DNA of 64,000 bases from a virus, in IMG/VR virus record IMGVR_UViG_3300046820_000975, positions 47,925-111,924 of that record, one strand, 5' to 3'. This document shows positions 29,306 through 58,200 of this stretch, one piece after another (position 1 is the first letter of the stretch; every line of letters starts with the position of its first letter). Position numbers and translations under genes: made by a program. Under the pieces are notes generated by a model that was not told the origin of the DNA, did no database searches, and was given only the letters and a program-made list of their open reading frames with translations.

Positions 29306-29383
29306 TTAGGAAAAGTCTAACTAATTTTGTACTTTTAAATGTAAGAGGTTTAGTGTGAGTTTCCTTTAAACTTCAAAAGTTTA
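29306..29383 (+). promoter_or_regulatory. Promoter-like motif with two 17-bp palindromic operators
   Basis: GTACTTTTAAATGT at 29329; TAAATGT-AAG-AGGTTTA (29336-29352); perfect TAAACTT-CAA-AAGTTTA (29367-29383) overlapping the ATG. Confidence 0.6.
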
Positions 29384-33087: not shown

Positions 33088-33102
33088 AAAACATATTATA
33101 GA

Positions 33103-38800: not shown

Positions 38801-41800
38801 AATGATGCAAAAGAATACATGCAAAGCGTGGATGTGTTATACAATCCAGAAGCTTTTGAGTATGCTACATCAAGAATGTTAGATGGTGAAATCAAATTCA
38901 AAATTAATGCTACTTTAAAACAGTTGTCAGAAAGTACAGATAATTCAATTGCTATGATCATTCTTGGGTATCAGATAACTGATCCAAATGAACAAAGAGC
39001 AATTGCACAAGAAGTATTTGATGCTGTACAAAAGTCTAATGAGTATACTAAACTAATAGCACTTATAGTTGACCCTAATTTAGGGTATCAATCTGGTACT
39101 TACGCAAATGAATTATTTCAATCTTTATTCAAAAAGCTTACAGATAAAGTAAGAGAGATTTCAAATCGCTATGATAAGTCTGGCGCAACTGATATCTCAG
39201 ATACTGATTATGAAGCGTTTAAGAAAGATGGTACAGTACCTGAAGATGTAAAGCAGCGTATAGCTCAAATGCTTTATGATCGTAATCCTCTTACAGATAA
39301 GATGAAAGAGGTTTATGATAAACATAAAGAAGACATTGACAAAATGGTTGATGCTTTAGAAGAAGAGTTTAAGAGAAAGCGTGATGCAGCTCGTGGTCAA
39401 AAGATCTATGATAATTCTGCTAACTCGTATGAAGGTCAAGCATCAAAGCGATTATACGTCATGGAGAATGATCGTAGATTTGCAGAAGACATTGAGAAAT
39501 ATTATGAAACACGCGATGGTCAAGTAGGTAGCCTTAAAGAGATGGTTCAAAAGGCAATTGAAAATCCTTTAACACATCCTTATATTAAAGAAGGATTAAA
39601 GAAATTAGTTGATAAGATAGGTGATGATGCGCTAGTTAAATTTGATTCAAAACAAACTATTGCTCCAGGATACTATGATCCTAAAGAGCATCTTGTTGTA
39701 TTAGATCCAGAATTAGTAAACTCTGGTAATGTAAGTTTTGAAGCTGTTATGTTCCATGAATTAATACATTACTTTACTTCAAGAGAACTTAATAAAGATA
39801 CTGAGTTTACTCAGAAAATTGAGAAAATGTATGCTAATGCCAAAGTGTTTATGATGGCAAACAACATTAGTACCAATTACTATGGCATGTCTAACTTGGA
39901 TGAATTCCTTGCTGAAGCATTTACAAATCCAGAATTCCAAAGTCAGTTAAATAAAATTCCAGGTGATCAAGGTAAAACCATGTGGCAATCATTCTTGGAT
40001 GCATTAACTAAGTTTTTAAAAGAAGCTTTGAATGTTAATGTTACTCCATCAATGCTTACAGATGTAATGAAAGCTGTACAGGAGTTTATTGATGATCCAA
40101 CTTACAATGGTGCAGTAGAGTTCTTAAAAAACAAAGGACTAACTGATGCTGAGATACAAGAATTTTCACGTGCTGAAGTATTGTCTATTGCTGAACAAGA
40201 AGGATATAATAAAGATCAGAATCCTCCAGCTTCAGAAGATTCATTAAATAAACCTGAAGAAATTATTCCTGAATTACAACAAGCTGCAGAAGGTCTTACA
40301 GGACAAGAAACTGGTGCTGTTGCAGAAATAATCCCTCCTACAGATTCTGAAAACATGACTGCTGAAGAAATTGAAAGACAAGCAACTTCTTTAGCTGAAA
40401 ATGATGTAAAGGAAAATACAGAAGCTTTAGAAAGATTAACTGGTAAAGGTCAAGTTGGTAGTACTGTTACAGATGTAGCTTCAAATGAAATGTCTGGTGC
40501 TCCTGACATGAGTCAATTATTAGCTGGTAAATTAGGTGCAGGCGCAACTGTTAATGTACCTATCAAAAATGGTTTAGTACAAATTACTATTAATGATAAC
40601 AATGTATATAAGGAAGCTTATGTATTCAATGTTAAAGACGGTGTAATTGTTAAAGCTACACATGTCACTAGATTTAAAAACTCTACAGAACCTACAGCAG
40701 ATAAAAAGACACAGGTTGCTAATCCTATTGAAACTTATAATAATCTTGCGTCTAATCCAGCTTACAAAGTTGATGTGCGTGATGATGATAAAGTCAAAGA
40801 AACACCTGCACAACAAACAACTACTCCAGATATTCAAGCTAAAAAAGCTGAGATTGAAAAAAGAAGAGAACAAGAAATCAAAGAGAACGTTCAATTACTT
40901 GATGTAAATGATGTAAGAAGACCTAATGGTGCAATTGGTACACAAGGGTTTGATCCATCAACAATGAAAGATTTAGTAAAATTTATATCAGGTAAGATGG
41001 GATTTGCAATACCATCTGAATTACTTGATAAAAAGACTGATAAATTAAAACCTCTAATTGATTATATAATTGAAAATCAAGACATTAAAGCTAAAATACT
41101 TGATTATATTACAAGCAATCCATCAGAAATATCTGTCATGCCTGATGATTCTATTCAATTTTTGGATGGTAACCATAGAGCAAATTTATTAAACATCATT
41201 GGTTCTGCAGTTATTCCTGTTATAAATCAGACTTCAAAAAAACAAATTGATTCTAAATATGATGCAGAACTAGCTGCTTTAAATACTGAAAGTACTGGTG
41301 AAGCTGCTATAGCTTTAGATGAGAAAGTAAGTACAGCTCCTGTTGTAACTGGTAACATTGAAGTTAAAGGTACAGAAGAAACTGGGTTACAAGTAGTTGA
41401 TACTCAAACAAATACAACAGTTGCAAAAGATATTGAAAATTTAGATGAAGCTAACAAAATAGCACAATCATTTAACAACAGTGTATCTGATGTAGAAGTA
41501 GCAAAACAAATTCTAGATAAGTTGATGAATGGCAGTGCAACTCCTGAAGCTATTGTAGCATTCTGTGAATCAGCTAAAAACAGTTTGCGTTCATATAATA
41601 ATATGAATAAGACAGATCTTAAAACTTTAAGTGAGTATGCTAATACTCCTAAAGGTATGGAGTTGTTGACCAATCTAGCTAAAAAGAAATTGGGAATACA
41701 AGAAACAAAGAAGAAAACTGCAAAGGTTGAAAAGAAAGAAACTGCTGCACAACCTGATTTGTTTAACACTACTAACGAAACAACTAACAAAGATTTAACT

Positions 41801-41944
41801 TCTGAAAGTTTAAATACGCTTGCAAAATTAGTTATGGAAAAAGCTACAGAATTGCAACAAGATACCACAAAAAGTAGTAACTTAGTAGTGGATACTTCCT
41901 CTATTTTAGATATGATAAAGGACGTACATTCTTGTAACCAATAA
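35801..41944 (+). CDS. Giant ejected protein (vRNAP-associated) with zincin and ParB-like domains
   Basis: 2047 aa; Gly/Ala-rich hydrophobic N-terminal third with EGLQENIQE; zincin MFHELIH...DEFLAEAFTNPEF; LDGNHRA. Confidence 0.75.
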   Translation: MADQLEPLSIQDAIKQATAPAGAQPKTNDFASSMNDVFNDANAKFTVPEDVPTSPLRAGGPGVQFYNADDAAKYQLQSDFDAWGFNPNNPANYDRMVAKEDWGSAISKGWDGLKTNFGNTYVGNFTGYGRMVDAIAHLDMSRLMDDESTMIDQAYAQKQMGNKNFVFVKPEEEDDIFGKKFVAESMQSAGFSLGTVAAFGTELLADALITAATAGGGIETFGASIAKFGARLGMETAGKAIGKGVSAVGKVAKGFTEVESLGKGALNAADKGLDVAGKLKGALTSPTIRKEVINDTFEAMTKTMAQLSNPSKIGEWSMKALEKTPLLGTGVKFGKTIRAAAKGGAGASELIGMGLGATRRVMQEYNMASTEANMEAVSSYSDTLDDMVRQYKASNGGDTPSELEFASMRNDAMKSAGANYKTNMSVLLAMNSLQFGNVLNKYGSANKFIRDFMMEGAEDVLAVEGKRILKQGAKEVVKEGVEQAGKQAAKEGVKEAVEQGVKQSFTKLYEKGALGTLGLVGQISRDFGKKEAAYQLGRSFVRNFAKFEALEGLQENIQEASGKAWRDYYAAKHDTAVKTIYDTFSDAIGDQMSKQGFRTFLSGALGGVLSHGPSMIINKTIAKAAEGANSLNYRNDPSQNPATQAQKALKENIANLNAMFEQTSSSTIDKSLFNFANQIHAGKEMTQAAAKNQQYEFTNGRDNALLSAVISAKQTGTVDVLARSFREMGNNMTAEQFENNFGISLSDTKYNSVEDFTNSIGDDIEKYSESIDDVKRNVGDLANPNLYKVGSKEYYLAIHKRRTQEEAVNIISYNMLRGEMTAERVQQLAQEVRANPVLAHSADYVMRVLHNGENLDAEIGNVQSEVTILNEQLKGEGLDPKLKADLEKQLELKKEHLVDLKIWQSYFDKSARKRTAGKESAVEYTSGKFVGKGKKSTFDDQGKLVQEFEPTSEELNDPEVLARFKKLLVNLNNQAGISVQMTDAQAREALSKVTDISRLNNDAKEYMQSVDVLYNPEAFEYATSRMLDGEIKFKINATLKQLSESTDNSIAMIILGYQITDPNEQRAIAQEVFDAVQKSNEYTKLIALIVDPNLGYQSGTYANELFQSLFKKLTDKVREISNRYDKSGATDISDTDYEAFKKDGTVPEDVKQRIAQMLYDRNPLTDKMKEVYDKHKEDIDKMVDALEEEFKRKRDAARGQKIYDNSANSYEGQASKRLYVMENDRRFAEDIEKYYETRDGQVGSLKEMVQKAIENPLTHPYIKEGLKKLVDKIGDDALVKFDSKQTIAPGYYDPKEHLVVLDPELVNSGNVSFEAVMFHELIHYFTSRELNKDTEFTQKIEKMYANAKVFMMANNISTNYYGMSNLDEFLAEAFTNPEFQSQLNKIPGDQGKTMWQSFLDALTKFLKEALNVNVTPSMLTDVMKAVQEFIDDPTYNGAVEFLKNKGLTDAEIQEFSRAEVLSIAEQEGYNKDQNPPASEDSLNKPEEIIPELQQAAEGLTGQETGAVAEIIPPTDSENMTAEEIERQATSLAENDVKENTEALERLTGKGQVGSTVTDVASNEMSGAPDMSQLLAGKLGAGATVNVPIKNGLVQITINDNNVYKEAYVFNVKDGVIVKATHVTRFKNSTEPTADKKTQVANPIETYNNLASNPAYKVDVRDDDKVKETPAQQTTTPDIQAKKAEIEKRREQEIKENVQLLDVNDVRRPNGAIGTQGFDPSTMKDLVKFISGKMGFAIPSELLDKKTDKLKPLIDYIIENQDIKAKILDYITSNPSEISVMPDDSIQFLDGNHRANLLNIIGSAVIPVINQTSKKQIDSKYDAELAALNTESTGEAAIALDEKVSTAPVVTGNIEVKGTEETGLQVVDTQTNTTVAKDIENLDEANKIAQSFNNSVSDVEVAKQILDKLMNGSATPEAIVAFCESAKNSLRSYNNMNKTDLKTLSEYANTPKGMELLTNLAKKKLGIQETKKKTAKVEKKETAAQPDLFNTTNETTNKDLTSESLNTLAKLVMEKATELQQDTTKSSNLVVDTSSILDMIKDVHSCNQ

Positions 41945-41968
41945 TTGCAAATCTGAAAGCATTTTTCT

Positions 41969-44900
41969 ATGTCTTGTGAAACGCAGATAAGTAAGTACAC
42001 TCACATTGTACAAGCCTTATTAACTCAGAACTTTAATGTATATAAGAGTTTTGACAACGCTGTTAAGTTTATTCTTTCTTCAGACTTAACACCTGAAGTA
42101 AAGAAATTAACTATTCATAACTTTGCTTACATATATGAGCAGTTAGATAACATAGTAAAAGCAAGTCCAGAAGTTAAAACATCTTATCTTGATATTGAAA
42201 ATACAGATAAGGTAAAAGAAGCTGTGCATCTTTTAAATGATACTGACCTTTACATTAAAGCAATGGAAGGTATCTTTAAAATTAAAGCTACTTCTCCAGT
42301 AACAGTTGAAGATATTCAAAAAGGGATTGATGATTTAACAACCCTTAAATCAATCAATCGTGCTACTGATCTTGCTGGTCCAGAAGGCATCTTGGCAAAG
42401 ATTAAATCTTATGTTGAGAATACTGCATTTGAAGATTTGGGAATGCGTAATAGCTTTGTACAAAGTTCAATTGATGCTCTTATTTCTGCAATTAATTATT
42501 TTACAGAAAGTCCTGTATATAACAATGGTTTAATTACTTATGTAAGATCAGAATTAAGCAAGCTTTCTAAGACAAGTGAGTATGTTCCTATTTCAGCTAT
42601 TAAAGATCTTGCTGAGGTTAGTTTAAACAATATGATTGTAACACTTACTAACAAAGAAATGTTAGAAGGTTACCAGCAAGATGATAAAGTATTTGTGTTT
42701 CTTCCAGATGGTACTGTTGAAGAAATGGACAAACGTTATATTAAAAGTATCAAACCAGCTTTACCTACATACTCAAATGATATTGGTAATGGCTTGTCAT
42801 ATTTTACTAATGAGCAATTAGATTCTTCTTTAGAAATGCGTCCTTCTGCTAATGGATATGCAGAAAGAAATGCATTTAAAAGTCGTTTAGAATCAATGGC
42901 TAATCCACAAGGTCAAGTTTCTATTCATGCTGTTAGATTAGGTGCTGCTGATAGACGTGTTGAACGTATGCAACAGTTATCTAAATCTGATCCTAACTAT
43001 GTTCAGTTAGCAAATCGTACACATGAAACTTATGAAACTGAAAGTCAGATTAGTAAACTTAAATCTGGACCAAATGAAGTAATCTTATCTGTTGCACGTC
43101 CTACGTCAGAAGATCAAGATATTGCAATCACTGGTGTTCTTTCAGAAACAGGAGATATCTTTAACATTTATTCAACTGACAACTATACATTTGTGTATAG
43201 TAATAACAAGACTGTTAAGGTAGATTTTACCAATCCTGATCACAGAGCATTGGTTAAACAATTAGCTGTAAGATTAGTAGATAATAAAAAGATTGAATTG
43301 ACAGATGCAGACTTAGCTAAGTTGGCAGATGCTCAAAGTAAGTATAATGCTTTTAAGAAGGATGTAATTGAAACACATGGTGAAACTTTAAAATTAAATC
43401 CATCTGTTGATATCAGTGATATCTTTTACAAACACTATTCAATTTTACCTTCATCTAGAACAACCAAAAAGCAACCTACATTAGCTGAACAAATGGAAGC
43501 TGATGATCGTTACTCACGCTCATTAGAAATCTTTAAGCGTAATGCAGATGGAACTTATACTCCAACAGGTTCTAAAAAAATTCCTTTTGTATATACCAAA
43601 TGGAACAATAATAGTGCATCGCCATTTATGCTTAACAGCATGTTGGCATCTGATGAAGTAATTTTTTATGCTGGTTCTTATTATTCACATGATGAATATG
43701 CGCGTGATGTTTTAAAATTAAACGCACGTGAATTAGATAAATTAGCTCAAGCAACAAAAGGTACAGAAAACAGTACTGCACTTGTAATTAAATTTGATGC
43801 TAAAGGTAAAATGACAGTTGATAATCTGATGAGGATTAAGCCAATGGCTGAAGCTGAACATTTTGCTTTGTTCATGATTAACTTTGGCGAGGCTGTAACA
43901 AAATCAAATCCTAAAGAACGTGCTGAAGCTGTTAAAGATTTAAACTTTAACAAGTATACATTCAAATCACGTAGTTTAAGTACAGTACTTGGTGGTGGTA
44001 CTTTATATTTTAATATCACAACTGAAGGTTCTGGGTTTACTCCAAGCATATCATTAAAGTATACAGGTTCAAATCCTGATATGCTAAATATAAATGATAG
44101 CAGAAACAGTTTTTCTGTTCCTTTACCTTTAGGGTTGATATCTAAAATGCATGATACTTTCATGGGTAAAAATTCTGACTTATTAAAACAAGTTCAGAAT
44201 GAAAATGAAACATTAAAAGTATATGATTTAAGTACAAAAGAAGGACTTGAGTCTTTCTATATGGCATTACCAGTTCTTGCTTCAAACAATACATTAGGTG
44301 CAAAAGGACGTAGCTTAATGACAAAGATTGCTGAAGCTAATACTGTCTTTGCTAAAGGAGTTGCAACTAATTATTTTAATGAATTAAGAAAACGTGCTGA
44401 AGCTGAAAAAGCAGCAAGCACAGAAGAAGATACCTCTGGTGAGAAAATTGTAGGCAACGTTTTAGCAGTAATGCAAAAAATGATGAGTGGTCTACAAGTA
44501 GAAGCAATGCTTGCAGAAAGTGATGGTAATGGTAATTTCCATCCACAAGTTGAATTTACAAATGCTAATAGTAGTTCTTACAAATCAGCATTTATGACTG
44601 GTGGTAATAACTTTAGATTAGTTAGTGCGCCAACTGTAACTCAACCTGTTATTGTATCTAAAGGATCTGTATTACCATATTCTGGTAAACCAGTTGTTGA
44701 ACCTGCACCTGTTAATGTAACACGTTCAGAAAAACCTACAGCTACTCAAGAAGTACCTACAACTCAAATTAAAACTGAGGAAGCTAAGACAGAACCTAAA
44801 GCTCCAGTTAAAGTTGGTAATAAAACTTTTACAAACAAGAACAATCCTTTCTCTTTAGCTAGTACTAAAGAAGGTGTGAGTGCTTCTAGTGAAGCAGAAA

Positions 44901-47900
44901 TACAAAGTGCTGTGTCATTGATTAAATCAATCTTGCCACAGTTTGATATTAACCTAGAAGATATGTCAGATGTAGTTGATTTAACTGCAATTGATGGTAA
45001 TGTCTTAGGTATGTATAAAGACAAAGTTCTTTATTTAAATGAGAAATTGAAAGTTGCTGGTGTACTTTACCACGAAGCTTTCCATGGTGTATTTAGACAT
45101 TTAATGAAGTATGAAAACCGTCGCGCTTTATTAGATGCTGTTATTGGTAATGCACGTAACAAGAGTAAGTTTACAGAAAAAGCGTTACTTGAATTTGGAC
45201 GCAAACGTAACTTACAATTAAGTTTAAGTGAGTTAAGAGATTTAGCTGCAGAAGAAATCTTAGCTGATGGGTTCAAAGAATATTTAACTAAGAAAACATC
45301 TACAACAAAAAAGAGTTTATTGACTAAGTTCTTTGAACTTCTTAAGAAGGTTTTAAATATGTTTAGTTCATCTAGAAAATTGATTGAACAAACATACGAA
45401 GATATTGCTACTGGTCATTACAAGCATGTTGCTATTCAATCAGGTATGTATGATGGAAAAGCTGCTTATGAATTAGTAGAAGGTATAAATGAGTTATCAT
45501 TAGATAACCCTGCTAATCCTGAAGATGTTTCTTACAAATCTAAAAGTTTAACTGTTGACCAACAAAATCAAATGATTTATATGGTCACAAGACATATACT
45601 TAATGACAGTCGTTCTGTATCATTTGATGAAAAGTTTGATGCAGCAACTAAGTATATACGTGAAGAAGTTTACAATGTTGATGCTATTGCTAGTAAATGG
45701 CCAGGGATGGATGTTACTGCATTTAAAGCTAAATATGGTAACTTATATTCTCAATACCAGTTCATGTTAGGTGGACGTATGTTTGGTATGAATATCAATG
45801 ATATTAACTCAACAGGTCTAGAAGAGAATAACAATATCGTTTTAGAAAACACAATTACAAATAGTGAAGGTGAGTCCATTGATAACACAATGGGTCAGTT
45901 CTCTTACAATCAAGTTAAACAGATGGTAAGTGAACATATGAAGAACCTTAACAATGATGTTCTAGAAGATGAAAGTGCCAGTGTGTCAACTGTGATGGGT
46001 GAAATGAATGGTGACAATTCAGAATTAACTGGTGATGAAAATGCATCAGATACAAATGACGAAGTTTCATCTGATCAATATGATAAGAATTTCTATGAGA
46101 TAAACATCTTAGATTCTGCACCTACACAATTCCGCAAGTTTTTGTCAATGATTCAACGTGATGTATTTGATCCTGAGTTAGGATGTACAGTACCTCACAT
46201 GATTGATGCAAACTACATGATGCCTATGTTGCTTACGTTGTCTTCTGACAATGTTCCAGCAGACATCGTAGACAACTTATACGTGCGTGCAGAACAAATG
46301 CGCGACAATGGATACATTACTCATGCTGATGATGTCACTGCTGTTTATAATGCAATTAAAGAATTGCCACAGGGATCACACATGCGTAACATGATTATTG
46401 ATACTCTACATGCTACTCAGATCGGGTATTTGATGTTCAATGTAACATCACCTACTGTATATAAGACAACAGCTGAGGAAGAGTCAAACATGTTAAAAGA
46501 CAATAAACTTAAGGTTACTTTACAAGATCGTATGACTGCTAACACAGCGCGTGAGTATAAGAATGGCCTTGTGTCTTCTATGATTCTTGAGTACAAGAAA
46601 AATAACAATCCTAAAAATCGTGCTGCATATGATGAGAAGATGAAGGATTTAAGATACTTGTTAAGTGATATAACTAATACAAAAAACATTCTTGGTGAAA
46701 GTAATCCATCTGCACGTCTAGATGAGTTTACTAACGAGTTGCATAAAGGTTTAGTTAGCATTGGGTTAAGTATTCCAAAATCAATGTTGAAACTATCAAT
46801 CATTGGTATTGAAATGCAAAACAATAATCGCAAGGATATACTAAGCAGATTAAGTGAAAAGCAATTAACTGAATATAATCTTGATAGTAATTACATTCAA
46901 GAAAACTTACACTTGGAAAAATCATTCTTTGTAAGTCTTTCCTCTATTATTCAAGGTGTACTTGATACGCATGAGTCATTAGAAAAGTTATTGGATGACA
47001 AGTCATCAGCTCAATACATAATCACTTTTAATAACATTTTAAGACGTAGTTCTACTTACATGTCTAAGTATGATCCAACTGCGCCAAATACAATCATCAA
47101 AAACGCAAGTGGTAAAAACATCTATTCTTTTGTAAAGTATACTCCATTAATGACTATTGCACAAAGTGTACGTCGCAATGGTTTAAAAGCTACTTTGGAA
47201 AACGATCCATACTTTAAACGTTTCTTGAAAGACTTCATTGGAAACAATCCTATGTTGGGTGGAGTTATGACTGGAGCTACTGATGAGCAAACTAAAAAAG
47301 TAGAATTGTTTTTAAAGAACATGCAAACAGTATTGTTTGGTGGTGTTCAACAAGGCAATAATAAAATTGTAAAAGAAGGTCAAACATTTAAAGACATTGA
47401 AACTGGTTCATTAGCAATCTTGAACATTATGAGTTTCATGGATCGTCAGCGTGAATTTTCTACTGATATATCAGGAGGTACTACAGAGATTCAAACGTTC
47501 ATGCGTAGCTATGGTCAGTTAGAAGCTTCACAAACAAACTTTATGGTTACTGGTTTATATGATCAGTATGTAAACGATAAAGGTGTAGTTGATAAATCTA
47601 AAATTAGTAACGCTTTACTTGGAGTTATTAAACAAGAGTATGAGCGTATTAGAAAAGAGTATGCTAACCGTGAAGAAAACAAAAGAACTCATGGTACAAC
47701 TGATCTTGCAACTGGTGAAGTAGTAAACAATGTTATTAATAACTACAATGGTAAATTAGGTGAAGATCGCGTATCAATTGATACTGATTCTAATAGTTTA
47801 CGCGCATACACTTTTGGTAAGTTAGCTGATTTCTTTAATGATAAAGATGACGTAAAACAATCATTGATTCAAAGTGCAAAAGAAAACAAAGAGTTTTCTG

Positions 47901-50900
47901 AGAATGATTTAAAATCAATTCAAGAAGCACTTGGAACATATGCTGAAAACATGTTTAAAAAGCATGTTGACAATTTAGTACGCAAAGGTGTAGTTAAAGT
48001 TAATACCTACAGACAAGCAAAAACATTTGGTGTATCTGGTAAAGCTGAAACATTTTTTACTCAAGGTGCTGGTGGTAAAGTAAAAACTACTGAAGTATTT
48101 GAAATACCATTATTACCTGATACAATTAAGTTAGGATATACAGATAAAACATCTGTTGTTAATCAATACGGTTCTCCTGAAAATGCTACCAAGTTAGTTA
48201 ATGATGATGGTGATACAATTGGTTCTGCAATTATGCCTAACATGAAAGGTTTACTGCAAGATGCGTTCTATAATACCTGGATTAACTCATTGGTATTCAA
48301 TGATATCTTTGATGGTGATGCTGCAATGAATATCAAAAATGCAGTTGACATGGTAAAACGTAATAAGAAATGGTTAGCTTCTGGAAGTAATATGAAAGAA
48401 GGTTACCACACTGTTGCGTACCTTGATACCATTTTAGGATTCATTCACCCAGTACACAGTACACATGGACCATATCGTTCAGAACAAGAGATCATTGCTG
48501 ATCCTAAGTTGACTGAAGAAATGCGTGCTGAAATTTTAGAAGATTTTAAAAAAGCAGTAAGTGGTCTTAAAGTAAAAGATCCAATCACAGGTAAAGTAAC
48601 ATTTGACTGGGGTAATACCATGCAAAAAATGTTTGATGGTCAATCAGTTAGTTTATTGATGCATCAAATGGATATGTTTGATACATTAGGACGTATGTCT
48701 GAAGATGCAAAACAAATCTTAATTGCAAAACATTATCGTCCATTAACTGAAGGTGAAGAAAGAACATTGGAAGCAATGAAGATTGTTCTTAATCCTAAGA
48801 AAACAGTTACTGCAGCTCGTACAAGTTACCATAAGTTGAGTGAAAACTTAATTGATCGTAATGATGTCAGTGTTATTAAACCTTCAAAGATGATTGATGA
48901 AATAGGTAATCCTGTTTCAATGAGTACAATCTATGAGGAGTTAGGTAAATTGTGGAACTTAGTATATGATAATCGTAAGTACTATCAAGAAGCATTGATT
49001 GCAGGTAATCAAGAAGATGCTAAACAGCACATGAGTGACATACAAAATATTATGACACTTATTCATGATTACTATGAACCAATCAAACATCGCCAGGAAT
49101 TACATGATATGTTAAATTCTATGGAGTATCACCAGATTGATCAGATCATGGATACTGAAGCTTCTAAGTGTGCTACTAAACTTCCATTAAACCACAGTGC
49201 TGCTCAACGTGATTCTAAAGGTTATATCAATCTTCCAGTATCAAGTGTTAAAGTAGAAAACAACTTTAAATACTTACAGGTAGAAACATCTGGTGTTCAC
49301 GATACAGCTAAATACTCAGTTCAATCTAAAGTATTAATTCCTGCTGATATCCAGTCATTGGCTGAAATTATCAGTAACAATATGATAAATGAAACTGGTG
49401 AACGTTTAAGCAAAGAAGATGAAGAAAAAATTAATGCTATTAGTGAAAAGTTATTAGGTGATTATGAATCATCTATGTACGAGGTAATGAATGCAAGATT
49501 TGAGTATTTGAAAAACATCATGCGTGGTGTTGTTAATCCTGAAACTGGTGAGTTAGAAGACAAAGGATTTAACACTGGTAAGATCTTTAATCTTATTAGA
49601 GAAAGTATGTTGAGTCAACGTGCCCCATCTAACGTTGTTAAATTATTTGAAGTTAATCCAGATGGGACAACTAAGTACAATCCAAACTTACCAGAAATTC
49701 GCAAGGCTTTACAGTATTATTTCTTCTCACAATATTCAAAACATGTAACTGATGAAAAAGGAGCTGGTGGTAAATCAATCCACGTAAGTTCTGTTGGTTA
49801 CAATGTACTTGAACAAAACGGTAATGTAATTACTACAGAAGAATACAAAAAGAATCCTGCTGCATATCAAGATGCATTGGTACGCCAGTTAGGTGTATCA
49901 GTTGAAGAAGAAATGGTTGATGGACAAATGATAAAACACTACTATGTTGAGTGTATCATTCCTATGCCACGTTTTGCAAGTGAGCAACATAAAGAAGTAT
50001 TTAAAGAACATTTGATGAAGATGTTTGGAACGCGTATTCCTACAGAGGATAAACGTTCAATGGTATCTTTAAAAGTTGTTGACTTTGTTGATAGTACAAA
50101 TGCAAACGCTATTATTGTACCTCAATTTGTACACTTACTCGCAGGTTCTGACTTTGACGTAGATGCTTTATATCAAAGAATGAAAGCAGTTTATGCAGAT
50201 GCTGCAGGAACTTATCATGCTTATGGTAACTATAACTATTACAGATCAAATCAAGAAGGTCAATTTGTAGAATTTATAAACAGTATTGCTAGCAGATCTG
50301 AATTCTCAGGATTAATATCTGCAGAAATGGATAAGTTGCGTGAACAAGACAGCATACTTCCAACTGAAGACGTTAGTAAATTACTTGAGTATATTGGATT
50401 CTTTGATCACGCTGATCATCATCATCGTGACATGAGCCTTACTGAATTGAAACAACGTCATGAGCTTGTGAAAGACATGTTGAAGGATCTTAAAGAATCT
50501 GCTAAAGAATACAATAAAGATGCTTCAGAATACTTAGACGCAATTCTTCGTGGTGAGATTGATTTAGGACCAGCTGGTGCAGGGTTACTTGAAAAATTAC
50601 AAAGCGCGCATGAAGTAAGCAAAGACATTGACCAAGCTTTAAGAGAGCGTAACGAAATCAGTACTGATAAACGTATTGCTTATGCTGCGTTAAAGTTACA
50701 AGCAACAGTAAATGTACTAAGCAAATATGGTATTCCTACAAGTCTTGAAAGTTTTAATGAAGATGGAAAGTGGGGAGGCATGGTTGCAGAAAAATTCCAA
50801 AATAAAAACTTGGATGCTACATTAAACATTCTTTCTAATGAATTAGTGTTTGATAACTTATATATCAATGAGCGTTCTAGTGTTGAACGTTTTGAAGATA

Positions 50901-53900
50901 TCATGGAAGCATTTGGTATCAATATGGAAGATGTTGCTACAAATATGAACCATTACACATTGGACTTTGCATTATATGCAAAAGAGATCAATGAAATGAA
51001 CAAAGATGGTATTGGTATCACAGCAAACCTAAACAAATTCTTAGCATTATGTAGCTGGTTTAATTTAGAATTATCAAATCCAATTTGGAGTTTTAATTCT
51101 ACAAATACTGCAGGTGAATTTGAAAGTCAATTAAAAAATAAGTTTGGTGCAATCAATGAAGAAAAGGTACGTACCATTGCATTGATTGGTAACATCTTAG
51201 GTATGTTTGCAGATGGTGCTAAAAAACCTATTCCTGCAGCATTACAAATGAACGAGATAAATGCTAATACAATCTTATCTATGGTTGGTATTGGTTTATC
51301 TCCTGAGTTTGCAATAGCATTTAACTTTATACCTGAAGTTAGAAAAGCAGTTGATACTGTTAAATACAGTCAGAAAGCATTACAAGAAAATGTATCTGCA
51401 AATACTGTTTATTTAAACAATGCTTTAAAAGAACAGTTGCTAGATTTATATGGAAGACAAGATTTCTCTGGTAAAACTGTATTGCAAAGTTTACAACAAA
51501 AAGGTGTATTTACTGCTGATAATCCTAGTAGTTACAGAGTGAATCCTATTAATAAATCAAATATTGTTATTGATTTTGCAGCAAGACAATTTGCAAATGA
51601 AACTGGAGGATTAGATGCAATGATGTCTAATACATTACCACTTAGCCAAATTGGATTTAATGTTAAAACAAAAACAAGTGAATTAACTGAAGATGAACAA
51701 AAAGCAATATTGCTAACTTACTACTATGATCAAGTTTCACAATCATGGGATTTATTAAGAAGTGGTAGTATCACTAATTTGTTTAAACGTTTGAATCCTG
51801 ATTTTAATGCATTTGATAAATTAAAACAAAACGTTGATGGATTACTTTCTGGTGATCAAACAATATTTACACCAGATTCATTAAATCGTTTAAAACTTGG
51901 ATACCAAGTTTGGAATGTTTTACATTCTACATTAAATGATTTAGATAATCAAGCTTCTAAATTATTCTTAGAACGCAGTGATGTAATGCGCCCACTAATG
52001 AATTCTTTCAAGGGTATGTTCATGCGTCCTGAAACAATGGCTGACGTTTTAGTTGGAACAATTGGTATTCAACACGTTGTAAATACATTACCTGGTTCTA
52101 TTAAGAGTCCTAATCCAGAAATTCAAGCAATGCTTGATGATTTAGATAGTACTATCAAAAATTCTTTCACTACTGAATACTGGTTTACACATAACCTTGG
52201 TGATGACTTAAGCAAACTTCAACAGAAATATCCTGGTAATAAGTTCTTAGAAATCTTACGTGAAGATCGTGGCTCTGATGTTATTAAAGGTGTAACTGTT
52301 ACAGGAATGGAAGTAGATGTACCAATGCGTTTTATCAGAACAATTGGTGGTTATGAATCTAGTGACCAACGCGTCAAAGATATTCATGATGATGCTGCTG
52401 CATTAATGCAAAACACTGATTCACGTTTGTTTATGAGAAAGTTATATTTCCATGAGCTAGCGCGTACTGGTGCAGGTTATGCTAAGAACTCATTCATGCA
52501 ATTCTTACCTACAGAATTAAAGAAACCTTTATCAGATAGCATTGGTGAATTTGTAAGAATCTTTACTGAAAATAGTAATGATAGAGAAGGATTGTTAGAA
52601 AACTTAAAATCTTATTTAGGACCTGAAGCTACAAACGAACAAGTATATGATATGTTTAAAAACATAGCATTACAAATGGCGTATGCTGCATCAAGAGAAG
52701 TAGGTAATACAAAGATCAAAGGTGTATCTCCTATTTCTTACTTTATTGATAAATCAGGTATTGAAGGTTCTTACACTAGTGGTCTTTTAAGAAACATGGA
52801 GATTGTTAAGAATTCTAAAGGTAACACTGATCTTATGGCAATGAAAGAAAGTGCCATTAAGTTAGTTGCAAAAACTTTTGGGATTGATCCTTCAAAAGCT
52901 GCTAGTGCAAAAGCATTTACTCCTAATGTTAAAACTTTAGGTGATTCATTCGTACTAAACATGGATGCATATCAAGATGTTTATAATGCAACTGAGAAAG
53001 CACAATTATCTATTGGTTACAAATTAGGTTTACGTTACAAGAGTGGTACATATACATTCCCATTAATCATTCGTGTTGAAGGTGGTACGTATATTTTATC
53101 AGGAACTGATAAAGCATCAAGCTCAGATTTAGGCAAAAACATTTTTAATGCTATCACATATACAGAAGCTGACTATACAAAGATGCTAATGGAAGGTGAA
53201 GATATTCAGTTAGGAATTCCTTTAAGTGGTTCTAAAGCTAAATATGAATTAATACCAACTGAGTATGTCAATTCAAATCTTAATCCTGTAGGTTTCAGTA
53301 AAGAACAAGCTGATGTTTACAAAAACCTAATGCAAAGAAAAACAAAGATTGAATTATCTAAAAACAAAGCATTAATTGCTACAGGTGAAAAGCGTATTGC
53401 TGATGAAGATATTGCTACATTCAATGCATTGGTTAAAACTTTAAAACGTTTACCACAAGAGTTCTCTACACGTGAGTCACGTTTTACAGAGTTCTATAAT
53501 CCAACAACTGGTTACAGAGAGAAGGCACCTCAATCTTCTATTTGGTTTAAGAATGAAAATGATTTATATGACTTGGTAGATAAAGAAGAAGGTGAAGTTT
53601 ATATTAGCAACGTTAACTTGTCTACTGGACGCCAATACAAAATAGCAACTCCAGAAGAAATAGCTGCTGCTAAAATGAATGTAGCTTCTGAAACTACACC
53701 AGCAACTATAGAAATCTTTGATGGTATCACAGCTTCTAAAATGGCTGCTAAAGAAGGTAAAGGTATTTATGCTATGACTGTTAACCCAGGTGAAAAGATT
53801 CCAGGCCTTACTGAGAAAACTCACTTTGGAAATCCTTGGAGTGTTGGTAACAAGAACAAAGAATTCAGTACTGATACTAATGAGGAAGCAGTAGCTAACT

Positions 53901-55297
53901 ACAGATCTTGGTTGAAAGGTGAAGAGTTTACTGAAGTTGAACCTGAACGTAGAAACTGGATTGTTGGTATTATTAACTCTGGTAGATTAGACAACAAGAA
54001 GTTCATATACTTTAAATCTGGAATCTACTCTCATGCTGATGCATTGGTGGAAATGATTAATACCAGAGATAAAGAAGCTGTTCAACCAACAGCACCTTCT
54101 GGAAATAAAGTTGATGTTACTAAAGTAGCACCAACGTTAGATTTATTCATGGTAACAAAAACATTACCAGGAGGAGTTACTTTAAAATATTACACTAAAG
54201 ATTCTCAGACTGCTGCAAAGTTTGGCGATGAAGCTGTCAAAGTTAAATTCAATACTGCAAATGTATTAGATCGTAAGTCTGACTTGTTTAAGCAATTAGT
54301 TACTGAATACAACAATGCAACTGGAGCAAAAGTTGATATCAGTCCTGGTAAGTTAGAACAACAATATGGTTTGTTTGAATATTTGAAAGGACGTGGATTT
54401 ACTTCTATTACTGCAGGTAGTGCAATTGTAGAATTTGGCGCATCTTCTGTTAAGAAGATTGAAACTGAAGTAAAAGCAAATCCAGATGAATATACTAATC
54501 ATTCTGGAGGAGCAGTTGGTGCTGATAGCAAGTTTGATGAAATCGGTAAAGAGTTTGGTCAATTAAATCATCAACATTACTATTATGGTTCTAAAACACC
54601 ATTAGGTAATGTATTATTGACAGATTCACAATTGCAAGAAGGTATTGAGGAAATGAAAAAAGCTGCTAAAATTCTTAATAGATTTCCAGCTAAAAAAGAT
54701 ACTATAAACCTTTTAGCAAGAAACTGGTTCCAAGTTAAAAACAGTACTCAAATTATTGCAATAGCTCCTATCGATTCATCTATGAAATTTGTTGAAGGTG
54801 GAACAGGTTGGGCAGTTGCAATGGGTCAAGCTAATAATAAAGAGATTAATGTTTTTAATCTTAAAGATAATAACTGGTATAAATGGAACGGTACAACTTT
54901 TGTCAAATCATCAGTTCCAGTTTTAGCTAAAAATTTTGCTGGCATTGGTAGTAGACAAAATTATGGAGTAATGACACCTCAGTCTATTCAAGCTATCAGA
55001 GATGTTTATGAAAATACATTTGGTACATCTGCTAAATCATCCACTGAATCTACAACTGAAGCACCAGATAGTACAGATGCACTAGCTGCTATGATGAAAA
55101 ACATGGAGAAGATAATGACAGATAACCTTGATTTGTCAGATCCTAAAACTGTAGATTATTTGTATAACCTATCTAGTAAAACTAGAACTAAAGAGAATTT
55201 CCAAATGGAAGCTCAAAAATTAGTTGTAAATTTACGTAGTAATAATGCAAACATTTCTAACGAAGAAATTCTAGATAATATAAAAAATTGTTTCTAA
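41969..55297 (+). CDS. Virion RNA polymerase polyprotein (two-barrel, crAss-like)
   Basis: 4442 aa; GSDFDVD catalytic loop at about 50144-50164 preceded by RIPT (50033); FDGQ motif; zincin YHEAFH (45068-45085); accessory C-terminal domains. Confidence 0.92.
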   Translation: MSCETQISKYTHIVQALLTQNFNVYKSFDNAVKFILSSDLTPEVKKLTIHNFAYIYEQLDNIVKASPEVKTSYLDIENTDKVKEAVHLLNDTDLYIKAMEGIFKIKATSPVTVEDIQKGIDDLTTLKSINRATDLAGPEGILAKIKSYVENTAFEDLGMRNSFVQSSIDALISAINYFTESPVYNNGLITYVRSELSKLSKTSEYVPISAIKDLAEVSLNNMIVTLTNKEMLEGYQQDDKVFVFLPDGTVEEMDKRYIKSIKPALPTYSNDIGNGLSYFTNEQLDSSLEMRPSANGYAERNAFKSRLESMANPQGQVSIHAVRLGAADRRVERMQQLSKSDPNYVQLANRTHETYETESQISKLKSGPNEVILSVARPTSEDQDIAITGVLSETGDIFNIYSTDNYTFVYSNNKTVKVDFTNPDHRALVKQLAVRLVDNKKIELTDADLAKLADAQSKYNAFKKDVIETHGETLKLNPSVDISDIFYKHYSILPSSRTTKKQPTLAEQMEADDRYSRSLEIFKRNADGTYTPTGSKKIPFVYTKWNNNSASPFMLNSMLASDEVIFYAGSYYSHDEYARDVLKLNARELDKLAQATKGTENSTALVIKFDAKGKMTVDNLMRIKPMAEAEHFALFMINFGEAVTKSNPKERAEAVKDLNFNKYTFKSRSLSTVLGGGTLYFNITTEGSGFTPSISLKYTGSNPDMLNINDSRNSFSVPLPLGLISKMHDTFMGKNSDLLKQVQNENETLKVYDLSTKEGLESFYMALPVLASNNTLGAKGRSLMTKIAEANTVFAKGVATNYFNELRKRAEAEKAASTEEDTSGEKIVGNVLAVMQKMMSGLQVEAMLAESDGNGNFHPQVEFTNANSSSYKSAFMTGGNNFRLVSAPTVTQPVIVSKGSVLPYSGKPVVEPAPVNVTRSEKPTATQEVPTTQIKTEEAKTEPKAPVKVGNKTFTNKNNPFSLASTKEGVSASSEAEIQSAVSLIKSILPQFDINLEDMSDVVDLTAIDGNVLGMYKDKVLYLNEKLKVAGVLYHEAFHGVFRHLMKYENRRALLDAVIGNARNKSKFTEKALLEFGRKRNLQLSLSELRDLAAEEILADGFKEYLTKKTSTTKKSLLTKFFELLKKVLNMFSSSRKLIEQTYEDIATGHYKHVAIQSGMYDGKAAYELVEGINELSLDNPANPEDVSYKSKSLTVDQQNQMIYMVTRHILNDSRSVSFDEKFDAATKYIREEVYNVDAIASKWPGMDVTAFKAKYGNLYSQYQFMLGGRMFGMNINDINSTGLEENNNIVLENTITNSEGESIDNTMGQFSYNQVKQMVSEHMKNLNNDVLEDESASVSTVMGEMNGDNSELTGDENASDTNDEVSSDQYDKNFYEINILDSAPTQFRKFLSMIQRDVFDPELGCTVPHMIDANYMMPMLLTLSSDNVPADIVDNLYVRAEQMRDNGYITHADDVTAVYNAIKELPQGSHMRNMIIDTLHATQIGYLMFNVTSPTVYKTTAEEESNMLKDNKLKVTLQDRMTANTAREYKNGLVSSMILEYKKNNNPKNRAAYDEKMKDLRYLLSDITNTKNILGESNPSARLDEFTNELHKGLVSIGLSIPKSMLKLSIIGIEMQNNNRKDILSRLSEKQLTEYNLDSNYIQENLHLEKSFFVSLSSIIQGVLDTHESLEKLLDDKSSAQYIITFNNILRRSSTYMSKYDPTAPNTIIKNASGKNIYSFVKYTPLMTIAQSVRRNGLKATLENDPYFKRFLKDFIGNNPMLGGVMTGATDEQTKKVELFLKNMQTVLFGGVQQGNNKIVKEGQTFKDIETGSLAILNIMSFMDRQREFSTDISGGTTEIQTFMRSYGQLEASQTNFMVTGLYDQYVNDKGVVDKSKISNALLGVIKQEYERIRKEYANREENKRTHGTTDLATGEVVNNVINNYNGKLGEDRVSIDTDSNSLRAYTFGKLADFFNDKDDVKQSLIQSAKENKEFSENDLKSIQEALGTYAENMFKKHVDNLVRKGVVKVNTYRQAKTFGVSGKAETFFTQGAGGKVKTTEVFEIPLLPDTIKLGYTDKTSVVNQYGSPENATKLVNDDGDTIGSAIMPNMKGLLQDAFYNTWINSLVFNDIFDGDAAMNIKNAVDMVKRNKKWLASGSNMKEGYHTVAYLDTILGFIHPVHSTHGPYRSEQEIIADPKLTEEMRAEILEDFKKAVSGLKVKDPITGKVTFDWGNTMQKMFDGQSVSLLMHQMDMFDTLGRMSEDAKQILIAKHYRPLTEGEERTLEAMKIVLNPKKTVTAARTSYHKLSENLIDRNDVSVIKPSKMIDEIGNPVSMSTIYEELGKLWNLVYDNRKYYQEALIAGNQEDAKQHMSDIQNIMTLIHDYYEPIKHRQELHDMLNSMEYHQIDQIMDTEASKCATKLPLNHSAAQRDSKGYINLPVSSVKVENNFKYLQVETSGVHDTAKYSVQSKVLIPADIQSLAEIISNNMINETGERLSKEDEEKINAISEKLLGDYESSMYEVMNARFEYLKNIMRGVVNPETGELEDKGFNTGKIFNLIRESMLSQRAPSNVVKLFEVNPDGTTKYNPNLPEIRKALQYYFFSQYSKHVTDEKGAGGKSIHVSSVGYNVLEQNGNVITTEEYKKNPAAYQDALVRQLGVSVEEEMVDGQMIKHYYVECIIPMPRFASEQHKEVFKEHLMKMFGTRIPTEDKRSMVSLKVVDFVDSTNANAIIVPQFVHLLAGSDFDVDALYQRMKAVYADAAGTYHAYGNYNYYRSNQEGQFVEFINSIASRSEFSGLISAEMDKLREQDSILPTEDVSKLLEYIGFFDHADHHHRDMSLTELKQRHELVKDMLKDLKESAKEYNKDASEYLDAILRGEIDLGPAGAGLLEKLQSAHEVSKDIDQALRERNEISTDKRIAYAALKLQATVNVLSKYGIPTSLESFNEDGKWGGMVAEKFQNKNLDATLNILSNELVFDNLYINERSSVERFEDIMEAFGINMEDVATNMNHYTLDFALYAKEINEMNKDGIGITANLNKFLALCSWFNLELSNPIWSFNSTNTAGEFESQLKNKFGAINEEKVRTIALIGNILGMFADGAKKPIPAALQMNEINANTILSMVGIGLSPEFAIAFNFIPEVRKAVDTVKYSQKALQENVSANTVYLNNALKEQLLDLYGRQDFSGKTVLQSLQQKGVFTADNPSSYRVNPINKSNIVIDFAARQFANETGGLDAMMSNTLPLSQIGFNVKTKTSELTEDEQKAILLTYYYDQVSQSWDLLRSGSITNLFKRLNPDFNAFDKLKQNVDGLLSGDQTIFTPDSLNRLKLGYQVWNVLHSTLNDLDNQASKLFLERSDVMRPLMNSFKGMFMRPETMADVLVGTIGIQHVVNTLPGSIKSPNPEIQAMLDDLDSTIKNSFTTEYWFTHNLGDDLSKLQQKYPGNKFLEILREDRGSDVIKGVTVTGMEVDVPMRFIRTIGGYESSDQRVKDIHDDAAALMQNTDSRLFMRKLYFHELARTGAGYAKNSFMQFLPTELKKPLSDSIGEFVRIFTENSNDREGLLENLKSYLGPEATNEQVYDMFKNIALQMAYAASREVGNTKIKGVSPISYFIDKSGIEGSYTSGLLRNMEIVKNSKGNTDLMAMKESAIKLVAKTFGIDPSKAASAKAFTPNVKTLGDSFVLNMDAYQDVYNATEKAQLSIGYKLGLRYKSGTYTFPLIIRVEGGTYILSGTDKASSSDLGKNIFNAITYTEADYTKMLMEGEDIQLGIPLSGSKAKYELIPTEYVNSNLNPVGFSKEQADVYKNLMQRKTKIELSKNKALIATGEKRIADEDIATFNALVKTLKRLPQEFSTRESRFTEFYNPTTGYREKAPQSSIWFKNENDLYDLVDKEEGEVYISNVNLSTGRQYKIATPEEIAAAKMNVASETTPATIEIFDGITASKMAAKEGKGIYAMTVNPGEKIPGLTEKTHFGNPWSVGNKNKEFSTDTNEEAVANYRSWLKGEEFTEVEPERRNWIVGIINSGRLDNKKFIYFKSGIYSHADALVEMINTRDKEAVQPTAPSGNKVDVTKVAPTLDLFMVTKTLPGGVTLKYYTKDSQTAAKFGDEAVKVKFNTANVLDRKSDLFKQLVTEYNNATGAKVDISPGKLEQQYGLFEYLKGRGFTSITAGSAIVEFGASSVKKIETEVKANPDEYTNHSGGAVGADSKFDEIGKEFGQLNHQHYYYGSKTPLGNVLLTDSQLQEGIEEMKKAAKILNRFPAKKDTINLLARNWFQVKNSTQIIAIAPIDSSMKFVEGGTGWAVAMGQANNKEINVFNLKDNNWYKWNGTTFVKSSVPVLAKNFAGIGSRQNYGVMTPQSIQAIRDVYENTFGTSAKSSTESTTEAPDSTDALAAMMKNMEKIMTDNLDLSDPKTVDYLYNLSSKTRTKENFQMEAQKLVVNLRSNNANISNEEILDNIKNCF

Positions 55298-55298
55298 C

Positions 55299-58200
55299 AT
55301 GGCAAACTTTTGTCCATCTGGCCCAGAATGGTCAGCACTTGAAAAAGAATTAGGTAAAGGTGACGCAACAACTGCGTTACTTTTAAATGGTAATGCTGGC
55401 CTAAGTAATCCAATTCCATCTGTAGCTGAAGCAAAAGCTATATTACACAATCTAATGATTGATGATAAAGATGAGCAGATGGTTAAATCATCTGACTCAT
55501 ATAAGCTGGTAAAAGCAAAAGAGGAGTTGGCACGTTTGCAAAACGCAATGATCAGTGCTACGCCAGATCAACAACAAACACTTGAAGTTCTCAGAAAGAG
55601 TGCTGAGTCTCGCGTCTTGTTTCACAAAGGAAATATTGAACGTGTAGCTAAAGGAGAAGAACCAATTAAAACTTTATCTGTCAGTACGCTAATGGGATCT
55701 TCAGAATTTAATGGAGATCCTTCTAAGTATGAAGCATTTAAATTGTTTGGTACTTTTATGCACGAGGTTATTGAAAGAGCACAGATCTTAACTAACCTTG
55801 CAAACAAACCTAACGTAAACATTAATGATGTCTTTAACAGAGAGTTCTTTGATGAAGTATACGCTAAGTTTCAAAAGAGAAGTCAGTTTGAAATATCAGG
55901 ACTAACACCTGATACATTGTTTGTTTTATCTAAACAACTTATTGATCAGATCAGCCATTACAAAGCACAAGGTTGTGTAATATTACCAGAGGTAAGTATC
56001 AGTGGATATACTAACTATGCTAACATGGTAGTAGGAAGGATTGATATGATGGTCATTGATCCATTTGGTAAAATTAAAATCCTTGATTTTAAAACTAAAA
56101 AGTGTCACTCAATCATTGATGTGGACGCTTCAGGTAATCGTATAGTAAGTGCTGATAGAGTATACCTTGAACTTGCAGATGAATCAAAAGAGATTACTGC
56201 AAAACCAGGAACACACTCAAGCTTTGCAAAAGGTAAACGTTCTGCTTATGACTCATGGGCATTACAGCTACAGATCTATAACAATATGTTAGAAAGCGCA
56301 GGTTTATCTGTTGACAATCATTCTATCATTGGTCTTGTTTACCAAACTAATGATTCTCAAGAGTTTATGGGTGCATCAACATTAGTGTTTAATGATGATA
56401 ACTTTTATAACTATGCAGGTGTTGCTGTAGTACCAAACGGTGCAGGATATGTTAAAGTAGATCCAGCAGCTAAAAAGAAAAAGATTGATGGCTTACGTGC
56501 ATTAGTTGATGAGATTATTCCTACAGGTAAGGAGAAAGAAAAAGCAGCAGAGAAACAAGCAAAGCAAGATTTCATACCAACCAAAGCACAAAACGATAAG
56601 TTACGTGATAAAATTCAATCTGTATTAAATTCAGAATTAGCTGACCTTGGTAAACAAATCAATCTTCTTTCAAAGAATGATAAGAACAATCCTACCTTGG
56701 CTGTACTTAAACAGCACAGAGAAGCTTTGATGAAACTTAGAACACGTTTCCAAAACATGTCTGAAGAAGACAGACAGTACTCTTACAACTTCTCATTAAC
56801 CATGGACTTCGTTCTACAAGAGTTGGCAAACTTTGAGAAAGAGTCAATGGCTGATATGGAAAAGATACGTAGCACTGATACTGAAAACTTAACGCAGAAC
56901 AATGATACGTTAAAAGCAATGACTGCGCGTTTCCAAAAATCAAGAACTGCAGCTGCTATTGTTGATGCGTTAAGTGAGATTGTCAGTGAAGCAAGACGTA
57001 ATAAGTCTAACGGTATCACAGAAGGTAGTGAAGTATATGAGAAGATTGAAACATTACGTTCAATGATTGCAGGTGTTGAAGCTGATTTCAGAGAAGCAAG
57101 TATTAAATGCGCTATTAAAATTTTTAGATCTCCAGGTGAAGAGAATTTTAAAAGCGTAAAGAAAGATGTACAAAATGCATTAGCACCTAAGTTAGCATTA
57201 GCAAGAAAACAACTTGAAGATTTAAAAGCTGGTAAGTATGCTGGTGTATGGAATACAATCAAAGCTAAAACATTTAGTTTCTTAAGTAAAGATTATAAAG
57301 AGAAACTTGCACAAAAGATTGGACCTGATGGTGCTGGTATCTTAAACGCTATTGAATCTAAAGAGCGTGAAGTTATGAAGCTTGAAGCTTTAGTAAATCA
57401 TGGTATTGACTACAATGATGATTCTATGGCAGCTTACATAAATGGATTAACAGATCCTGCAGCTGTTGGATTATTTGTTGGTAACTCTAACATATATAAT
57501 CCTAGTGCAATCATGGGAGGAATTGGAGCTATGCTTGTAGATCCAGGTTCTCTTGTCGCAGGCGCATCAAGTTCTGAACTTGGTATATCTTCGTTTGTAT
57601 TATGCATGAAGAATGCAGAGGCACAAATGCGTAGAAACTTACAAGAAGATTTTCTTGCATTAGATTTTGATAAACGTATGGAAAAAATGCTAAAGCGTTT
57701 TTCAATTGAAGAATTGAATGATGCTATTAGCGAATGGCGTACTGTTTCTTACAGAGATAAAGATGGCAACTTACAAGAAAAGCAAGAGTTATATATTGTT
57801 AAACCTTACTCAGAACAGTATGAGAAAACTTATACTGAACACAATGATACCTTAAGAACTTACTCTAAAGAAATTAGTGAACTAGAAGAAAAAGTATATT
57901 CAAGTTTTGGTAAACCAGAACATGATGGGTTAAAAGCTGATTTGATTGCAAAGCGTTCTGAACGTGACATGTACAAAGCGCAACATATTCAATGGATGAT
58001 TGACAACTGTAGTCTTCCTTATAATGAGGACTTCTACAAGTTGCAGCAGATGTTACCAGAAGAGATACGTGAACCATTACAGAAATTGTATTTGGAAATG
58101 GAAATTCTTCAACATACATCAGGTGCTGAAAACAGATCATCTGTCATGGATGCTGATGACTTTGATCGTATGCAAGAGATTCAAGTTGAGATACGTAAAC

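Follow-up and report, generated by a model that had tools for sequence, protein, structure and literature searches.

In the cyanopodophage A4 (Anabaena phage A-4L), cryo-electron microscopy revealed a C-terminal helix of gp27 inserted in a cleft of gp26 and stabilised there by a Cys1715-Cys5 disulfide; the bond stabilises a mortise-and-tenon ring of gp27 and gp26 round the portal axis (PMC12002296). Among the crAss-like phages, the cargo proteins of crAss001 were found in its particles by mass spectrometry, and gp47, gp49 and gp50 were placed in a capsid cargo zone from which they must partly unfold to pass the tail; the tail and gp57 of this phage contain disulfides, and the ends of the cargo proteins are not discussed (PMC10172136). 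The preprint of Drobysheva et al. reports fusion of the three proteins in some phages and suggests proteolytic activation of the polymerase, with cysteine unmentioned. In N4-like phages, the injected proteins (the virion RNA polymerase of Schitoviridae, and gp71-gp73 of phage DEV) are nearly free of cysteine (Cys), at 0.00075% against 0.865% in the proteomes, which was explained as avoidance of oxidation during passage through the periplasm (PMC11445570). Here we analyse three consecutive giant genes, termed B, C and D, whose products carry terminal cysteines on the ends that face each other. They lie in a 64,000-nucleotide (nt) stretch of viral DNA (positions 47,925 to 111,924 of IMG/VR record IMGVR_UViG_3300046820_000975), referred to as the window, which forms the final 64 kb of one phage contig of 111,924 bp.

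The three genes are all encoded on the + strand and together occupy 35801-61277 of the window. Gene B (35801..41944) encodes 2047 amino acids (aa) and would be the first link of a chain; gene C (41969..55297) encodes a 4442-aa protein predicted to be the virion RNA polymerase with a zincin-like part fused upstream; and gene D (55299..61277; 1992 aa), which starts one base past the stop codon of C, would be the last link. In each protein, no start earlier than the N-terminus given here is available after the preceding stop. The same genome encodes a crAss-type portal (phrog_6547, 1.4e-89) and a crAss-type major head protein (phrog_11589, 6.6e-36), and the phage is present in freshwater metagenomes from several studies, runs with fewer than a fifth of the sampled words having been excluded from this habitat call.

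All four facing ends of the trio carry a cysteine. Protein B has only two (1922 and 2045) and ends in ...ILDMIKDVHSCNQ; within its tail, SSILDMIKDVHSCNQ (41897..41941, + strand), Cys2045 is the third residue from the end and is encoded by TGT at 41933-41935. Facing it across the junction is Cys3 of C (TGT, 41975..41977, + strand), a protein that starts with MSCETQ, ends in ...ILDNIKNCF and contains six cysteines (3, 1406, 2401, 2662, 3028 and 4441). The conserved tail of C, about 57 aa long with the end EEILDNIKNCF (55124..55294, + strand), carries Cys4441 as its second-last residue (TGT, 55289-55291). This tail is faced by Cys5 of D (TGT, 55311..55313, + strand), located within MANFCPSGPEW at the start of a protein with eight cysteines (5, 226, 269, 604, 769, 904, 1482 and 1776) that begins MANFCP. 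The outer ends of the trio have none (B starts with MADQLEPL and D ends in ...QQQKRQQ). The initial annotation had described these facing terminal cysteines and Cys-free outer ends, and had counted two cysteines in B and six in C, all of which proved exact; the range it gave, 41905-55330, takes in both junctions but falls short of the genes themselves. Given the cysteine counts of the three proteins, all four facing ends would have a Cys within 5 residues by chance with a probability of about 4e-9 (0.0049 x 3.8e-5 x 0.020). Cysteine makes up 0.10% of B, 0.14% of C and 0.40% of D, against 0.9% genome-wide, a depletion weaker than that of the relatives, many of which have terminal cysteines only.

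The first relative came from database word searches, which returned a single homologue of C, the 4191-aa protein P0002 (34-38% identical). P0002 has three cysteines, at position 3, at position 2808 and at the second-last residue. The last 600 aa of C and P0002 are just 11-21% identical, and the final ~57 aa and their cysteine are nevertheless kept. No relatives were found in searches with the single B tail or the single C tail sequence, and blastn against the phage collection gave no match. The two-sequence alignment of C and P0002 retrieved 79 IMG/VR loci, which clustered into 65 non-redundant loci containing 138 junctions between consecutive open reading frames (ORFs) of at least 400 aa. Within the close clade, the single cysteine of the B homologue falls in the last 1-5 residues and that of the D homologue at position 3-5, and the polymerase contains two or three, including one at position 3-4 and one at the end.

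Across the 65 loci, cysteines at the junctions come in pairs. When the last and first 8 residues were scored, 56 of the 138 junctions had a Cys on both sides, 79 had one on neither side, and only 3 had one on one side alone; in one of these three discordant cases the missing Cys lies nine residues from the end. A Fisher test on this table gives 4.5e-35, a descriptive value that is no true probability because the loci are related. With a 10-residue end window the number of paired junctions rises to 57. The upstream Cys lies 1-4 residues from the C-terminal end in 51 of these 57 and the downstream Cys at position 3-5 in 54, never at position 2. The junction codons are TGT (93) and TGC (21), and gene spacing at paired junctions ranges from -23 to +32 nt, with pairs also kept over gaps of 488-874 nt in some loci. 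The 83 complete chain proteins together comprise 206,544 aa and 211 cysteines, of which 107 are terminal; 46 of the 83 have terminal cysteines only.

An independent set, obtained by comparing a profile of the D N-terminus with 1.84 billion representative sequences, yielded 93 full-length D-family proteins. A Cys is present in the first eight residues of 90 of these and in the last eight of none (0/93). Judged from these alignments and counts, the terminal-cysteine rule holds across the order, distant lineages at very low identity included. Loss of conservation at the termini had been named beforehand by the initial annotation as a finding that would speak against its proposal; conservation survived this comparison. 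Full-text literature searches returned no description of the rule in Crassvirales.

Lineages that cut the giant proteins at additional places have additional pairs. Locus L023 encodes a 4012-aa protein ending in ...DTTDC, a 326-aa protein that starts MPC... and ends ...KIKCL, and a 2034-aa protein starting MSKSC..., while locus L012 encodes proteins of 4341, 655 and 2291 aa, the added 655-aa link having a Cys at both ends. At L019 (L019:2-17819), the break falls inside the polymerase itself, some 290 aa ahead of its DFDxD motif and at a site that lies within a single polypeptide in phage phi14:2, and the facing ends again carry cysteines (...HAKKCTTV / MANNCLNW...). The new ends at this break comprise about 60 and about 220 extra residues that fail to align with unbroken polymerases.

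The opposite case, fusion, was scored at the equivalent of the crAss001 gp47|gp50 break, which corresponds to residues ~1180-1630 of C and was anchored on the zincin-like region. A C-terminal Cys is present at this break in 9/9 split lineages. In the fused proteins, the equivalent span has no Cys in 29/35 and a single Cys in 5/35; C is one of these five (Cys1406), and 10/10 scored relatives of its clade have none. Three fully fused giants have a single Cys in total, namely L046 (5677 aa) and the open-ended L028 and L049. The expectation that fusions remove the cysteines is thus borne out for most fused genes, and new breaks bring new pairs. In further loci, for example L024 and L056, two-protein systems contain exactly two cysteines, so that pairing is possible across the junction only. 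The idea that the cysteines are relics of an intein-like element or of polyprotein processing was rejected, since the site is Cys-free in the majority of fused forms.

Interrupted genes served as a control. Three loci of a gut crAss-like lineage, L059, L066 and L074, have a polymerase gene split by some 920 nt (L059:9112-10030) with a group I intron inside (RF00028, L059:9730-9973, 54.3 bits against a gathering score of 50). In L059 the interruption also holds a 181-aa ORF. Joined together, the pieces on the two sides of the intron amount to the intact L071 protein (2431 aa), and no Cys is present at the pseudo-ends of the interruption in any of the three loci. It is accordingly where the protein is broken, and not where the DNA is, that the pairs occur.

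The cultured crass phages show the same pattern, phi14:2 and crAss001 in an almost perfect form. In phi14:2, whose cargo proteins are present in the particle by mass spectrometry according to the record annotation, the only Cys of g067 (1797 aa) is the last residue, the crystallised polymerase g066 has just two (3 and 2179), and g065 has Cys3 alone. In crAss001, the sole Cys of gp47 is residue 2339 of 2341, and cysteines stand at 5, 1334 and 2404 in gp50 (2412 aa) and at position 5 alone in gp49. The rule is also kept in DAC17 and IAS virus. The zincin fusion protein of crAssphage LMMB ends in ...FSCM, and its polymerase, which is fused with the downstream subunit, starts with MSC and lacks a Cys at the C-terminal end. 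Gene adjacency and translational coupling cannot be the cause of the pattern, since the gp47-type gene of crAss001, IAS virus and DAC17 keeps its C-terminal Cys while being encoded on the strand opposite its partner. Two genes upstream of its zincin fusion protein, crAssphage LMMB also encodes an 861-aa protein (L082:1573-4158) whose sole Cys is residue 860; the next protein has no Cys at all, which leaves this end cysteine partnerless.

The window module resembles phi14:2 g067-g066-g065 and crAss001 gp47-gp50-gp49 in its homologous polymerase, its HExxH parts and its terminal-cysteine rule. The cut points differ from those of crAss001, C fusing the end of gp47 with gp50, and the clade of the window has an extra upstream link, B, compared with the cultured crassviruses. 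The N4-like study, compared by its description, mentions no terminal Cys pair, whereas in the crAss module the purge of cysteine stops exactly at the facing ends. The disulfides of the crAss001 tail and gp57 are, like those proposed for the window, inter-subunit bonds within crassvirus particles, but they lie at interior positions of folded proteins, linking subunits of the tail ring, the hub and gp57, and not at the ends of cargo proteins (PMC10172136).

The parallel with phage A4 is closer at the level of the junction. In both cases, consecutive, very large proteins (capsid-internal ejection proteins in phage A4, predicted cargo proteins in the window) carry a Cys near the upstream C-terminal end and another at position 3-5 of the downstream protein. 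In the A-4L record, Cys1715 is the sole cysteine of gp27 (1717 aa) and Cys5 the sole cysteine of gp26 (1114 aa; PDB 9K3A). Pf-WMP3, Pf-WMP4 and TR020, whose proteins are about 25% identical to A4 gp26, likewise have a Cys two to three residues from the end and a Cys at position 5. Phage A4 differs in having a single link rather than a chain of two or more and in involving no RNA polymerase, and its gp26 is all-alpha, unlike the nuclease-like (alpha/beta) N-terminal domain of D. The A4 paper treats the bond as a structural detail and gives no rule that tracks gene splits or fusions (PMC12002296). By analogy, the junction signature thus has one reading that experiment has verified, namely the disulfide of a podophage family with no relation to this one.

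The residues around the junction cysteines were compared between lineages. Clade B tails follow the pattern S-I-L-x-x-L...C-F and clade C tails the pattern E-I-L-E-K-I-K-C-L, in each case a short amphipathic motif before the Cys, which is one of only two invariant columns in an alignment of six B tails. On the receiving side, Cys3 of C is invariant in P0002 (MAC...) and in the alignment of C N-termini, Cys5 of D is invariant in the D alignment, and an M-x-x-C-P-N-x-x-x-P-E-W motif at the D N-terminus recurs in many lineages. The initial annotation had proposed that the B and C tails share ILDxIK..C. A motif of this kind does precede the Cys in both tails, with similar forms in the clade, but homology did not hold up: the comparison of the two tails by hhalign was not significant (probability 6%). 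Profile comparison of the N-termini of C and D gave no match, and the tail motif was not seen in distant lineages. In terms of sequence, ILDxIK is a short clade-specific motif, with no demonstrable homology between the tails. The possibility that the two junctions are copies of one cassette was rejected on the same comparisons, the tails scoring 6% and the receiving N-termini being unrelated. In structural models of the N-termini of C (400 aa; predicted local distance difference test, pLDDT, 66) and D, the first 5-7 residues, including the Cys, were predicted at low confidence, which is weak evidence compatible with a free tip.

Domain assignments place the chain among known crassvirus cargo. 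The DFDVD catalytic motif of the RNA polymerase lies at 50150..50164 (+ strand; C residues 2728-2732). In an alignment of 33 core sequences, positions G347, D349, D351 and D353 are invariant and GSDFDxD is kept throughout. A profile of these 33 sequences, with the window sequence first, matches PDB 6VR4, phi14:2 gp66, at E 6.8e-94 (6VR4_A residues 1042-1781); PDB searches with the single C sequence and with the two-sequence profile of C and P0002 gave no match. By this profile match, C is a homologue of the phi14:2 gp66 polymerase. Zincin-like motifs are present in both upstream links: HEAFH at residue 1035 of C lies in a region resembling crAss001 gp47 residues 2103-2293 (E 1.3e-7), and HELIH at residue 1319 of B lies in a region (1290-1430) resembling the zincin region of phi14:2 g065 (residues 215-353; E 1.2e-7). 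The zincin-like region is thus found in the upstream link B of the window and in the downstream link g065 of phi14:2 (L081:17921-22186), which suggests that modules moved along the chain between lineages and were cut and joined differently.

Protein D is weakly similar to the C-terminal parts of phi14:2 g065 and crAss001 gp49. Its N-terminal region (55671..56393, + strand; residues ~125-365) looks like a PD-(D/E)xK-type nuclease, with D249...D263-F-K265 invariant in the D alignment; this domain is context and does not form part of the link. A model of the N-terminal 385 aa has a mean pLDDT of 76, and its best Foldseek matches are all nucleases of the Exo5, Cas4, AddB or RecE type, at marginal scores (E ~5e-4; template modelling score, TM, 0.14-0.32). 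A DprA-like region was also detected near the C terminus of C (54482-54889, residues 4172-4307; phrog_768, E 3.4e-10); it is absent from P0002, the closest homologue, in which a large gap occupies this stretch.

The best reading of these data, and in our judgement a probable one given the phage A4 analogue, is that the cargo proteins are tethered head to tail by disulfides. B, C and D would be packed as cargo within the capsid of a crAss-like podophage, and each junction would be closed by a bond between the Cys 1-4 residues from one C-terminus and the Cys at position 3-5 of the next protein. In the window the predicted pairs are B Cys2045-C Cys3 and C Cys4441-D Cys5, and these would join 8,481 residues, in the order of the genes, into a single covalent assembly without branches. 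Bond formation would take place in the particle, probably once it has been released into oxic water; the bonds would hold the pieces together in equal numbers and order, and could be reopened by the reducing cytoplasm of the host after injection. In evolution, the Cys pair would substitute for a peptide bond, as suggested by the fact that lineages cut the same giant cargo protein at different places. As a tentative extension, this assembly of about 8,500 residues may leave the capsid as a single thread, only its leading end having to engage the tail channel and the rest being pulled or pushed through, with reduction in the host freeing the working parts, the RNA polymerase among them. The docking and disulfide chain put forward by the initial annotation is in this way partly supported, by the conserved pairs and the phage A4 analogue, though not by any demonstrable homology of the tails.

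Several observations weigh against a disulfide tether. Neither a disulfide nor any other covalent link or interface has been observed between these proteins in a crAss-like phage, and 6VR4, the gp66 structure, was solved on recombinant protein by itself. The rule is also kept by gut crassviruses, even though their habitat is anoxic and the cytoplasm in which they assemble is reducing. Ten CxxC or Cys-rich ORFs of the genome were examined, and none was recognised as a thiol oxidase, thioredoxin or glutaredoxin; CPYC and CPVC are present in two small proteins without a family match. The window is also less clean than its relatives, with interior cysteines in B (1), C (4) and D (7) that make mispairing possible. 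The surveyed sequences are related, and independent events are far fewer than junctions. Finally, BLASTP of B, C and D against phage A4 gp25-gp29 found nothing better than E 0.16, and with no similarity between the two sets phage A4 is an analogue and not a homologue.

Other explanations account for part of the evidence. The disulfides might act as static staples of an ordered protein core in the capsid, the proteins separating before or during ejection without ever forming a single thread. The A4 bond was described as a ring stabiliser and not as a threading device (PMC12002296), and the crAss001 proteins were placed in a capsid cargo zone (PMC10172136), both of which fit such a role; all pairs, however, sit within a few residues of the chain ends, as an unbranched thread needs, whereas a staple could sit anywhere, and we regard this alternative as rather unlikely. 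Non-covalent docking of the facing ends, with the cysteines sharing a metal ion or serving some other local interface role, would suit the short amphipathic motif before the Cys in both tails and the DVHSC end of B, in which a His lies two residues before the Cys. One Cys per end supplies only two ligands, though, no conserved His, Cys, Asp or Glu stands beside the Cys in relatives (AAECFK, ITRCFS, KIKCL, NTIC), and the solved analogue shows a disulfide; metal sharing or plain docking is accordingly improbable in our estimate.

Chemistry of another kind, such as acyl or thioester modification of the cysteines, their attachment to some other component of the particle, or zincin-like processing, might be suspected from the zincin-like HExxH domains that travel with the module and from the proteolytic activation suggested by Drobysheva et al. 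It would leave unexplained why the cysteines face each other in pairs, why the outer ends are free of them (0/93 D-family C-termini) and why most fusions lack them, and it appears very improbable. An origin of the cysteines in chance, or as a side effect of signals that the DNA carries where genes meet (start or stop context, translational coupling), is almost certainly wrong. All four window codons are TGT and C and D are one base apart, as a boundary signal might produce, but both codons are used among relatives, spacing and Cys position vary, pairs persist across the 488-874-nt gaps, and in crAss001, IAS virus and DAC17 the gp47-type Cys is kept although its gene lies apart from its partner on the opposite strand. 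The 79 Cys-free control junctions in the same loci, the Cys-free ends of the intron-interrupted gene and the chance value of about 4e-9 argue in the same direction. A disulfide tether between facing ends thus remains the preferred explanation.

The crass-like phages include the most abundant human gut viruses, and they package over half a megadalton of protein, their RNA polymerase included, and then inject it. Published models have this cargo partly unfold and leave the order of its exit unspecified. The terminal-cysteine rule predicts which ends are joined, in what order, and which residues to mutate in the cultivable phages phi14:2 and crAss001. It is also an aid to annotation: terminal cysteines mark the true starts and ends of giant genes, separate real protein breaks from intron interruptions, and point to cargo partners encoded elsewhere in the genome. 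If the single thread proves true, it would constitute a redox-gated delivery device and would explain how lineages can freely cut and re-fuse these giant genes.

Low cysteine content is not confined to the trio. A block of eight large late proteins has a Cys content of 0-0.4%, three of them having no Cys at all. The four large proteins encoded upstream of B (24119-35787; 768, 952, 1234 and 894 aa) contain 0, 0, 2 and 0 cysteines, and the major capsid protein and portal contain 0 and 3; with so few in the upstream proteins and the capsid, avoidance of Cys reaches beyond the three chained proteins. In contrast, neighbouring late proteins at window positions 11783-15228 are rich in Cys: a 185-aa protein with 8 (ending SGCCITCK), a 516-aa protein with 23 and a 303-aa protein with 11. 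These three have no Pfam match and may be disulfide-rich outer or fibre parts. Outside the window, the genome also encodes a spore photoproduct lyase-like protein of the radical SAM type (genome positions 20917-21768; PF20903, E 5.7e-21), whose gene corresponds to L087:917-1765 on the minus strand.

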